Below, piece by piece: positions 52,026-54,295 of a stretch of 64,000 nt of DNA. The notes below the pieces were generated by a model. The model saw only the letters and a list, made by a program, of their open reading frames with translations. It was not told where the DNA came from and did no database searches. Position 1 is the first letter of the stretch. Each line of letters opens with the position of its first letter. The stretch lies in assembly GCF_056746865.1 (NCBI RefSeq), contig NZ_CM163382.1. One strand, written 5' to 3'. The translations under genes were made by a program, and so were the position numbers.

Positions 52026-52076
52026 GTAGAGTAAGAGGCAGGGCGTAGTCGGACTATTTCCCTGCCTCTCCTCCCC

Positions 52077-52110
52077 GAACCGGACGTGCACCTTTCAGCG
52101 CATCCGGCTC
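52077..52110 (-). ncRNA. Group II intron domain V
   Basis: Minus-strand gagccggatgcgctgaaaggtgcacgtccggttc fits the 34-nt domain V hairpin with the catalytic AGC triad and GAAA loop. Confidence 0.7.
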
Positions 52111-52115
52111 TCCAT

Positions 52116-53639
52116 TTAAATGCTGGCGAACGCCATTGCCACTTCTGTAAAGCGCGATGTATACGTGTTTCTGGTCTCCGTCCTCAGATAGGGATTACCT
52201 TCGGGTAGCCGCCAGCGGAACAGCTTCTTGCCTTGCCCCACCAACCGGTACAGTATTTCGCCGCTGAGCTTGCCGTGATTGGTTTTACCAAATAAAACCC
52301 ACGTTTTGCTCTGACCCGGTTTCGGTGATTTACACCACCACCTCATCAGGGAAGCGATACCTGTACGGTATTTGCGGGCCAGCCAGTGAGCCAGCTTCCA
52401 GAACACGACACGGTCGATATAACTGAAGACTTTGGCCTTAAAATCAACGAACTGATAGAACATGGCCCAGCCTTTCAGTTTTCGGTTGAGTTGTTCAGCC
52501 ATATCGACTTTGCTTTCACTGTAGTTGCCTGATAACAGTGCTGTCAGCGATGCGGCGAAGTTTCTGGCTTTCTCCTGCGGGATCGTTGAGACCACTCGCA
52601 TCTCGCCATAACGACTGCGTTTGCGAATGATCCTGTGCCCCAGAAAGATAAAGCCGTCATTAACATGGGTGATTTTAGTCTTATCCATGTTCAGCCTGAG
52701 TTTCAGACTGCCTTCGAGCACACCCCGACACTCCTCCCTGATGGCTTCCGCCTGTGCTTTGGTGCCTTTGACGATGAGGACAAAATCATCGGCATAGCGG
52801 CAGTACGCCACCGCGGGTTTCCACTGCCAGTTTTCTCTGACCGCCGTACTTCGGCCCCGTTGGATACTGTTATTCCAGTACCACCGATCTTTTCTGGCTT
52901 TCCCGCTCAGGTAGCGCTCATGCAGGTATTGATCGAACTCATTCAGCATGATGTTCGATAATAGCGGCGATATAACACCGCCCTGTGGCACACCTTCACT
53001 GGCCGCCCGAAAGAGACCGACATCGATATGTCCCGCCTTGATGGTTTTCCACAGCAGAGTCATGAAACGTGCGTCACTGATCCTGCGGCGTACAGCCTTC
53101 ATCAGCAGTCGATGATGTACGGTGTCGAAGTAACTGGACAGGTCGCCTTCAATCACCCAGCGTCCCCGGGTTTCACCACAGTCTGTGAGCTGTAATTTCA
53201 CCGTGCGGATCGCGTGGTGGACACTGCTCTCAGGCCGGAAGCCATATGAGAGCGTATGAAAATCACTCTCCCATATCGGCTCCATCGCCATCAGCATGGC
53301 CCGCTGAACAATACGATCCCGCAACGCGGGGATACCCAGTGGTCGCAGTTTGCCGTTGCTTTTAGGGATGTAAACCCGTCTGGCGGGCAAGGGCTGGTAG
53401 TGGCCTGAGAGTAATTCATCCCTGAGGATTTGCAGCTCAACAGCCAGTCTGGCCTGTAGCATTGTTTTGTTCACGCCATCAACGCCGGGGGTATGGGCCC
53501 CCTTTGATGAAAGCGTGATCCGCGCCGCTTCAGCCAGCCATTCTGGTTGTGTTATCAGACGCAGCAGCCGTTGAATCCGTAGGGACGGATCGGTGGCTGC
53601 CCATGTGGCAAGCTTGCGTTGCATTTCGCTGATTATCAA
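52116..53639 (-). CDS. Group II intron reverse transcriptase/maturase
   Basis: 507 aa; RT motifs including YADD (CRYADDFVLIV), maturase-like C-terminal region. Confidence 0.88.
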   Translation of the reverse strand: MIISEMQRKLATWAATDPSLRIQRLLRLITQPEWLAEAARITLSSKGAHTPGVDGVNKTMLQARLAVELQILRDELLSGHYQPLPARRVYIPKSNGKLRPLGIPALRDRIVQRAMLMAMEPIWESDFHTLSYGFRPESSVHHAIRTVKLQLTDCGETRGRWVIEGDLSSYFDTVHHRLLMKAVRRRISDARFMTLLWKTIKAGHIDVGLFRAASEGVPQGGVISPLLSNIMLNEFDQYLHERYLSGKARKDRWYWNNSIQRGRSTAVRENWQWKPAVAYCRYADDFVLIVKGTKAQAEAIREECRGVLEGSLKLRLNMDKTKITHVNDGFIFLGHRIIRKRSRYGEMRVVSTIPQEKARNFAASLTALLSGNYSESKVDMAEQLNRKLKGWAMFYQFVDFKAKVFSYIDRVVFWKLAHWLARKYRTGIASLMRWWCKSPKPGQSKTWVLFGKTNHGKLSGEILYRLVGQGKKLFRWRLPEGNPYLRTETRNTYTSRFTEVAMAFASI

Positions 53640-54295
53640 AGGTCTTCACCTCGTTAGGTCAGTTAATTCACGTCGCAAACACATTCAAACTGCTTCCCTT
53701 CGCCATGTAATGGGCTTTCCCCATCGCGGACTACTACGGAAGCTCCGCCAGCCAGCGCGTCATCGGAGCCATGCCCCCTTAACATCCGTCGCTGACCTTC
53801 CCCGGTTTACCGGCCTGGACTCAGGCATACTGAGGAGGCTGCCCGTCGCACTCTTTATCCTTGCTTGCCGCAAGTTGGCAGAAGTCAGCAATGCAAGCGT
53901 GATAGACGCTGCTGCCCCGGTGTTTCGCATACATGTCAAAACACCTTCGACCGGCAGTGCTTACGTATCACTGCCAGTTCCTCCTGCACGGCCTGTCAGA
54001 TCACGTAGGCCGTGGTGACGTTTTCAACCCACAGAGGCGGATTAACGGGTTCATGTTCTTCAGCCTTTCAGTACTTAACCTTGAGGATCATCTCGGCTTA
54101 GTGATCTCGCCTCAATCCCCGTTGTCAGCGGGTTACATCACCCTGCGGGCATGCCGCAGGTCACTGCCGCTCAGGTTCTCCACCGTCACACCCGGTGGGA
54201 TTGTTGGGTTTCTCATCGTGAGTTACCGGTTCAATATTCCAGACAGACTCGCGGTTCATTTAAGCATCCATGCCCGCCCTGAACTCCGGGCACAC

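Follow-up and report, generated by a model that had tools for sequence, protein, structure and literature searches.

We analysed a stretch of 64,000 nucleotides (nt) from contig NZ_CM163382.1 (NCBI RefSeq assembly GCF_056746865.1; hereafter, the window), which carries a group II intron inside an interrupted insertion sequence (IS) of the IS3 family. Judged from its sequence, the intron is almost certainly E.c.I4, an element with a IIA-type ribozyme and a class A intron-encoded protein (IEP) that combines a reverse transcriptase (RT) with a maturase and has no endonuclease (En) domain. We consider it probable that this copy is a full-length but weakened and non-mobile member of E.c.I4, passively inherited within a recombinant IS. 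Since E.c.I4 and its homing into orfB of IS3-family elements have already been published (PMC3522654), the element and its homing are already known. From the view of annotation the locus is routine, and PGAP labels it as ltrA inside a broken IS3-family transposase.

Identity and architecture of the intron

The intron (2270 nt, minus strand; Table 1) begins with GUGUGCCCGG at 54295 and finishes with CUUACUCUAC at 52026, in agreement with GUGYG/AY ends, and its exon junctions read TTTACTTACG on the 5' side and TCTGGACGGG on the 3' side. The 5' GUGUG, the 507-codon RT/maturase with its YADD motif, and domain V, which an earlier note on this DNA had reported, were all recovered at the same positions on the minus strand; domain VI, which it had called short, is not, since the stem-loop and tail span 51 nt (52076..52026). 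Among complete E. coli genomes, 2668 of 5426 hold the intron sequence, annotated as ltrA, on chromosomes as well as plasmids, in roughly 4800 places overall and up to 20 per genome. The window copy is 99.6–99.8% identical to this multicopy E. coli form, only one nucleotide separates it from its best-matching E. coli copies, and an exact 81-mer of it occurs in the ykfC fragment of K-12, a strain for which a fragment of E.c.I4 has been listed (PMC3522654). Insertion of E.c.I4 is described at specific positions in IS629, IS911, ISEc16, and ISEc31 (PMC3522654). Its IEP belongs to class A and is without the D/En region (PMC3552965), class A is equated with IIA RNA (PMC4424553, Table 1), and under the database naming rule a name follows from more than 95% nucleotide identity to the named intron (PMC3552965).

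Scanning one genome per species, we found 189 stretches encoding relatives of the IEP (66–96% protein identity) in many Proteobacteria and beyond, and among these we delimited 57 distinct full-length introns, which are 2224–2288 nt long and have the same ends as the window intron. The Rfam families D1–D4 gave no match to the window intron at E≤1, which reflects class coverage and not degeneracy; therefore, a family alignment was built from the relatives, and RNAalifold was run on the first 700 nt of all 58 sequences (the 57 relatives and the window copy) to obtain a consensus. This consensus holds 166 pairs, 113 of them with compensatory changes; paired cells amount to 96.9%, compared with 81.0% after shuffling and 34–43% with partners slid, and the covariation score is 0.508 against 0.202 in the control. 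Of these pairs, 151 form in the window copy, and the others are mostly register errors in variable hairpins. The earlier note had named missing or degenerate domains I–IV and frameshifts in the RT as what would speak against its reading; by the pair counts given above the domains are present, and the open reading frame (ORF) is open, with neither frameshift nor stop.

Domains V and VI are matched by Rfam RF00029 at 52112..52026 on the minus strand (64.9 bits, gathering score 40, E 1.7e-10). The 14 pairs of domain V are nearly invariant among the 58 sequences, the helix of domain VI shows compensatory changes across the family, and a bulged, unpaired branch-point A at 52032, 7 nt from the 3' end of the intron, is invariant in 58/58. 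In domain IV, a hairpin with the sequence GAGGUGAAGACCUU is followed by the UUG start (53652..53637, minus strand); it holds the Shine-Dalgarno sequence, and the corresponding alignment columns 726–745 are conserved in 58/58. By analogy with Ll.LtrB of Lactococcus lactis, in which the DIVa hairpin carries the ribosome-binding site and the start codon of the intron ORF, this hairpin is probably the DIVa maturase-binding site.

In the IEP, Pfam places RVT_1 at residues 91–337 and GIIM at 361–426, the YADD motif forms residues 282–285 (52785-52796), and the NCBIfam model for group II intron RT/maturases, TIGR04416, is matched at 336.6 bits (cut-off 300). No Pfam domain follows GIIM and no HNH was found in the last 80 residues, in keeping with an En-less protein of class A.

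A minor variant with changes at conserved positions

The view of the intron as intact, also put forward in the earlier note, stands for its six domains, its full length, and its RT without stop or frameshift, and falls short at an arginine replaced by serine (R138S) and at two conserved base pairs that are broken. When compared with five sampled copies of the multicopy form, the window copy differs at intron positions 404, 484, 700, and 1068. The last of these alters Arg138, which lies in a GFRPERS motif. Positions 404 and 484 fall in helices of domain I, where the window copy is the sole C-A among the 58 sequences at pair 388-404 and the sole U-C at pair 51-484. The change at position 700 (A15V), which had appeared lineage-specific from the five samples, was set aside as a common polymorphism, the 81-mer with the window state (C700, G758) being exact in 1601 records.

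A 91-mer with both A404 and C484 is exact in 176 of 2738 records, which we treat as a minor variant of E.c.I4. Within it, the 54 records nearest to the window copy (one difference) carry a stop at codon 34 (W34stop), for which PGAP flags an internal stop. That all copies at the locus carry W34stop was ruled out by these counts, the stop being present in only 54 records against 176 with the variant; a restriction of the A404/C484 variant to this locus was likewise ruled out, as L090 and L091 lie in other contexts. The four variant copies examined (the window, L001, L090, and L091) occupy three genomic contexts and nevertheless have the same hybrid exons, which indicates, at the level of sequence, that they descend from one hybrid and not from repeated homing.

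Hybrid exons and their origin

The two exons of the intron derive from different IS elements. The 795-nt 5' exon matches intact IS629/IS1203-like copies, found in L083 and L089, at 99.4–99.5% identity. The 487-nt 3' exon shares 96.3% identity with the 3' part of IS911 and showed no similarity to that of IS629. An intact IS629 as host is ruled out by this 3' exon. The ends of the host are non-cognate (left IS629, right IS911), and they are flanked by GACC and GTGG with no target duplication; the cognate repeats, matching duplication, and single-lineage orfAB of a functional IS3-family host are absent. Ligation of the exons gives one continuous frame, which the IS3 family transposase model NF033516 matches at 311 bits, and this bears out the restored transposase frame predicted in the earlier note. 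The restored frame is, however, an IS629/IS911 hybrid, and in none of the 5426 E. coli genomes does a single aligned piece join the IS629-like and IS911 halves uninterrupted. Pieces that cross the junction belong to other IS3-family elements (77–83% identical over query positions 50–208, or 93% identical from 27 nt upstream of the junction). In-frame continuity follows from the insertion phase that all IS3 targets share, and so speaks neither for an original homing event nor for a working transposase.

As read from the sequences, the hybrid exons are most simply explained by homologous recombination involving two copies of the intron. The two parental junction types are represented, in L082 by an intron with IS629 on either side and in L089 by the IS911 3' junction, and the reciprocal product is found on plasmid p504239_101 (L083; NZ_CP025860.1, ~1874-4143), where the IS911 5' exon GGTGATGTGACCTATA precedes E.c.I4 and an IS629-type 3' exon TCAGCACATGG follows it, as expected from an exchange across 2.27 kb of identity. 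Homing into a pre-existing IS629/IS911 hybrid, or template switching during reverse transcription, would also have given an in-frame product, as any route would with the same insertion phase in all IS3 targets. Nothing direct favours either of these, the parental junctions and the reciprocal product argue for exchange, and a pre-existing hybrid would have an uninterrupted junction of the kind missing from the genomes searched; we regard such origins as very improbable. Intron copies have been proposed as recombination substrates between IS elements (PMC3522654), and the text of that paper mentions no hybrid or chimeric exon pair. The hybrid in the window and its plasmid reciprocal are concrete examples of 2.3-kb intron copies recombining unrelated IS elements. 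In L089 (strain MS 119-7, NZ_CP146653.1, 1810-3652), E.c.I4 is interrupted in domain VI by an inserted IS629-like element, and the 45 nt left at the 3' end of the intron lead into the IS911 3' exon.

Is the window copy mobile?

An open ORF with RT motifs and YADD, six domains, a perfect pairing between exon-binding site 1 (EBS1) and intron-binding site 1 (IBS1), and the proliferation of near-identical copies within E. coli would all be expected of an autonomous intron in full working order, able to splice efficiently, to restore the transposase, and to retrohome to other IS3-family copies. We nevertheless find this unlikely. The form that proliferates differs from the window copy at R138 and at positions 404 and 484, the variant was seen with one hybrid exon pair only in the four copies examined, the ORF restored by splicing is a hybrid between non-cognate IS ends, and the nearest copies already have a stop codon, as expected under relaxed selection on the ORF. 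In addition, two homing sites of the E.c.I4 type in the same window are empty: both copies of another IS3-family element have the site GGAGATATTACGTATA followed by TCTGG unoccupied, whereas the same site type is occupied by common E.c.I4 in L084 and in metagenome contigs. At the other extreme, the loss of an invariant arginine, the two broken domain I pairs, and W34stop in sister copies could mark a dead relic whose ribozyme is misfolded and whose protein is inactive, so that the intron is never removed and the hybrid IS is inactivated. This appears even less probable to us, as the copy departs from the common form at only ~4 of 2270 nt, its catalytic core is unchanged, single mismatches in long helices are usually tolerated, and maturase could come in trans from other E.c.I4 copies in the cell.

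On the sequence evidence, we lean towards a copy that is weakened or non-mobile, and several observations weigh against this. The 5' GUGUG, domain V, the branch A, and EBS1/IBS1 are all intact and the ORF is open; the broken pairs are single mismatches in one 9-bp and one 7-bp helix, and folding need not fail; and any weakening of the protein by R138S is a prediction from the invariance of the residue. The hybrid unit occurs in at least three genomic contexts, which could reflect movement and not only carriage on larger mobile DNA, and the variant-bearing records inspected were four of the 176. Little weight falls on the empty sites, since homing by En-less introns is inefficient and even active E.c.I4 often occupies fewer than 40% of its sites (PMC3522654). 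The identification as E.c.I4 was made through the published host range, the K-12 ykfC 81-mer, and the identity to the multicopy E. coli form. The locus emphasizes that an open ORF together with domain V is not equal to an active intron, and that comparison with the family and with the multicopy form reveals changes at invariant positions.

Table 1. Features of the intron, its host IS, and the empty homing sites in the window.
Feature	Position	Strand	Description and basis
Group II intron E.c.I4, full-length	52026..54295	-	2270 nt; 5' GUGUG at 54295, 3' ...CUAC at 52026
Domain I	53801..54295	-	Intron 1-495, closed by CCCG(6-9)/CGGG(492-495); consensus structure, covariation
Domain II	53747..53800	-	Intron 496-549; consensus helices 22-24, covariation
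Domain III	53692..53743	-	Intron 553-604; consensus helices 25-27, covariation
Domain IV with ORF	52111..53691	-	Family alignment
IEP	52116..53639	-	507 aa from TTG (502 from ATG 53624, used by PGAP); RT and maturase (X) domains
Domain V	52077..52110	-	34 nt, 5' GAGC..., GAAA loop, 2-nt bulge; Rfam match, family conservation
Domain VI and 3' tail	52026..52076	-	Family alignment
EBS2 loop UUGAAAACGUC	54017..54027	-	Intron 269-279; complementarity to exon
EBS1 candidate loop A, CGUAAG	53960..53965	-	Intron 331-336; 6-bp perfect match to IBS1 CUUACG
EBS1-like loop B, UGUAUG	53928..53933	-	Intron 363-368; 5/6 complementary to the window exon
Intron position 404, A	53892	-	G in common form; breaks C388-G404 pair
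Intron position 484, C	53812	-	A in common form; breaks U51-A484 pair
Codon 138, AGC (Ser)	53226..53228	-	Intron position 1068; the multicopy E. coli form has Arg, as do 54/54 relatives
Codon 34, TGG (Trp, family-invariant)	53538..53540	-	TGA stop in otherwise identical copies, 54 E. coli records
5' exon, IS629/IS1203-like	54296..55090	-	Left inverted repeat (55090), orfA, N-terminal orfB to ...WVADFTY plus G; comparison with intact copies
ALIL frameshift pseudoknot	54755..54639	-	In the 5' exon
3' exon, IS911 3' part	51539..52025	-	C-terminal orfB and right inverted repeat ending at 51539; 96.3% to IS911 in L088
Empty E.c.I4-type homing site	35002..35024	-	TGGTGCGGAGATATTACGTATA followed by TCTGG, in other IS3-family element
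Second empty homing site	42834..42856	-	In second copy of the same IS3-family element
Two IS3-family element copies	34524-35737, ~42356-43570	-	Spacing 7832 nt

Exon-binding loops and target rule

Nearly all of the 57 relatives are inserted after GAY-NTN-ACN-TAY-N with a T at +1, a site that corresponds to the W..D.TY motif around the first catalytic Asp of the IS3-family transposase, and in silico splicing of four distant relatives gave continuous IS3-family transposases (255–350 bits on NF033516). The window intron likewise lies in sense orientation after the first base of the codon following D-x-T-Y. Homing into OrfB of IS3-family elements, as the earlier note anticipated, is published for E.c.I4 (PMC3522654) and seen in the 57 relatives; what is doubtful is the mobility of the window copy.

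We assigned the EBS loops from the per-sequence complementarity between loops and exons, with shuffled exons as control; exon-versus-intron column mutual information had been swamped by phylogenetic noise and was replaced by this measure. In the EBS2 loop of the window copy, UGAAA can pair with exon UUUUA at −11..−7 (5 bp), and the same loop in relatives pairs with GAYAU at −13..−9. Two adjacent hairpins, at intron 321-343 (53975..53953) and 351-377 (53945..53919), present EBS1-like loops. Loop A, in the first of them, is perfectly complementary to the final six bases of the window's 5' exon. The A at intron 330, immediately 5' of loop A, can pair with U+1 of the 3' exon as a IIA-style delta-delta' contact; loop B, too, is preceded by an A, and nearly all relatives have U as the first base of the 3' exon. 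Across the family, the complementarity of loop A to its own exon is 263, compared with 247.6±4.8 for shuffled exons (reached in 0/2000), and that of loop B is 269, compared with 255.9±4.8 (reached in 7/2000), statistics which may carry phylogenetic confounding.

E. coli records and metagenome contigs yielded 20 distinct 5' flanks of E.c.I4. Among these, the CTTACG and CTTATG sites are matched perfectly by loop A, and the G/U-rich loop B, a perfect match to the CGUAUA-type sites that E.c.I4 occupies elsewhere, is perfect at CGTATA, CGTATG, CGTACG, CATACA, and CGTACA; the IS911-type site CCTATA is imperfect for both loops. A neighbouring hairpin at 54011..53990 (intron 285-306) has a nearly invariant CCUACA/CCUACG loop with the same sequence as the family consensus IBS1. 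Pairing of loop B with this loop was considered and rejected (279 observed against 278.7 shuffled), and no covariation of the CCUACA loop with either of the EBS1-like loops was found across the family.

From this anatomy and established group II intron biology, a cycle can be proposed for E.c.I4. The intron would be co-transcribed with its host IS, and the maturase would bind the conserved DIVa hairpin that carries its own ribosome-binding site. The ribozyme would then leave as a lariat through the bulged A of domain VI, and the lariat-protein particle would reverse-splice into DNA sites at which EBS2 (UGAAA/ACGUC loop) may pair with the GAY-NTN codons and EBS1 (CGUAAG, with the delta A before it) with the ACN-TAY-N codons and the U at +1. 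Because the IEP is without an endonuclease domain, cDNA synthesis would presumably be primed by the nascent strand at the replication fork, as in other En-less introns. Splicing of the window copy would yield a hybrid OrfB within an element that has non-cognate ends.

The class A family and comparable introns

In a 2013 survey, three nearly identical class A members were known. Class A could instead be a large family specialized for the D-x-T-Y codons of IS3 transposases, perhaps by means of two alternative EBS1/delta loops, a generalization that we offer only tentatively. If true, a specific loop (CGUAAG) and a wobble-tolerant G/U-rich loop (UGUAUG) would let one intron colonize many IS3 lineages; the D-x-T-Y targeting and the two loops, once confirmed, would bear on how a retroelement that finds its targets by base pairing can follow a motif of the encoded protein despite synonymous changes. 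We regard the class-wide D-x-T-Y targeting, the intron-mediated IS hybrids, and the two EBS1-like loops as modestly interesting leads. Six of the relatives (L004, L014, L022, L029, L063, and L065) were found on contigs of nearly intron size (2244–2319 nt), which are typical of assembly collapse at multicopy repeats, and this suggests active proliferation in these genomes.

S.f.I1 of Shigella flexneri, a bacterial class A intron, is 99% identical to E.c.I4. With described E.c.I4 the window copy shares its host genes (IS629, IS911, and other IS3-family transposases) and the En-less RT/maturase (PMC3522654, PMC3552965), and it differs as a minor sublineage (S138/A404/C484) in an IS629/IS911 hybrid. 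Other E. coli introns, namely E.c.I1, I2, I3, I5, and I9, also reside in mobile DNA such as IS elements, the Rhs H-rpt, and plasmids (PMC3522654), but E.c.I2 and E.c.I9 target Rhs IS (ISEc1-5), E.c.I3 targets IS679, and E.c.I5 has no described homing site.

Two well-studied introns frame the comparison. Ll.LtrB (IIA RNA, ML class), in which the nucleotide delta adjacent to EBS1 pairs with +1 of the 3' exon, resembles the window intron in what appears to be a IIA-type organization. Its protein LtrA has DNA-binding and endonuclease domains and cuts the bottom strand for priming, whereas by Pfam both domains are absent from the window IEP, and its target is a relaxase gene whereas that of the window intron is an IS element. 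The best analogue in lifestyle and in route of mobility is RmInt1 of Sinorhizobium meliloti (class D, IIB3), which is En-less, has its natural homing site in the transposase gene of an insertion sequence, and depends on the fork for priming; it differs in its IIB RNA class, its IEP class, and its target, ISRm2011-2 and not the D-x-T-Y codons of the IS3 family.

Surrounding DNA

The locus is a nest of IS fragments with a carbohydrate porin gene on one side and the L-lactate permease and dld genes on the other. The left end of IS629 at 55090 is abutted by a 5'-truncated transposase gene of the IS256 family (IS1414; 55104-55883, plus strand), and palindromic REP-like repeats of the GCCTGATGCG...CGCATCCGGC type lie at 51340-51480, between the right end of IS911 and the lactate permease gene. 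Rfam matches to the isrC small RNA at 35583-35705 and 43415-43537 lie inside orfA of the two IS3-family copies with the empty sites. Elsewhere in the window, Rfam reports a tRNA gene (18003-18075) and a match to IS102 RNA (26095-26331); both, along with the numerous IS elements, suggest a genomic-island location for the window.

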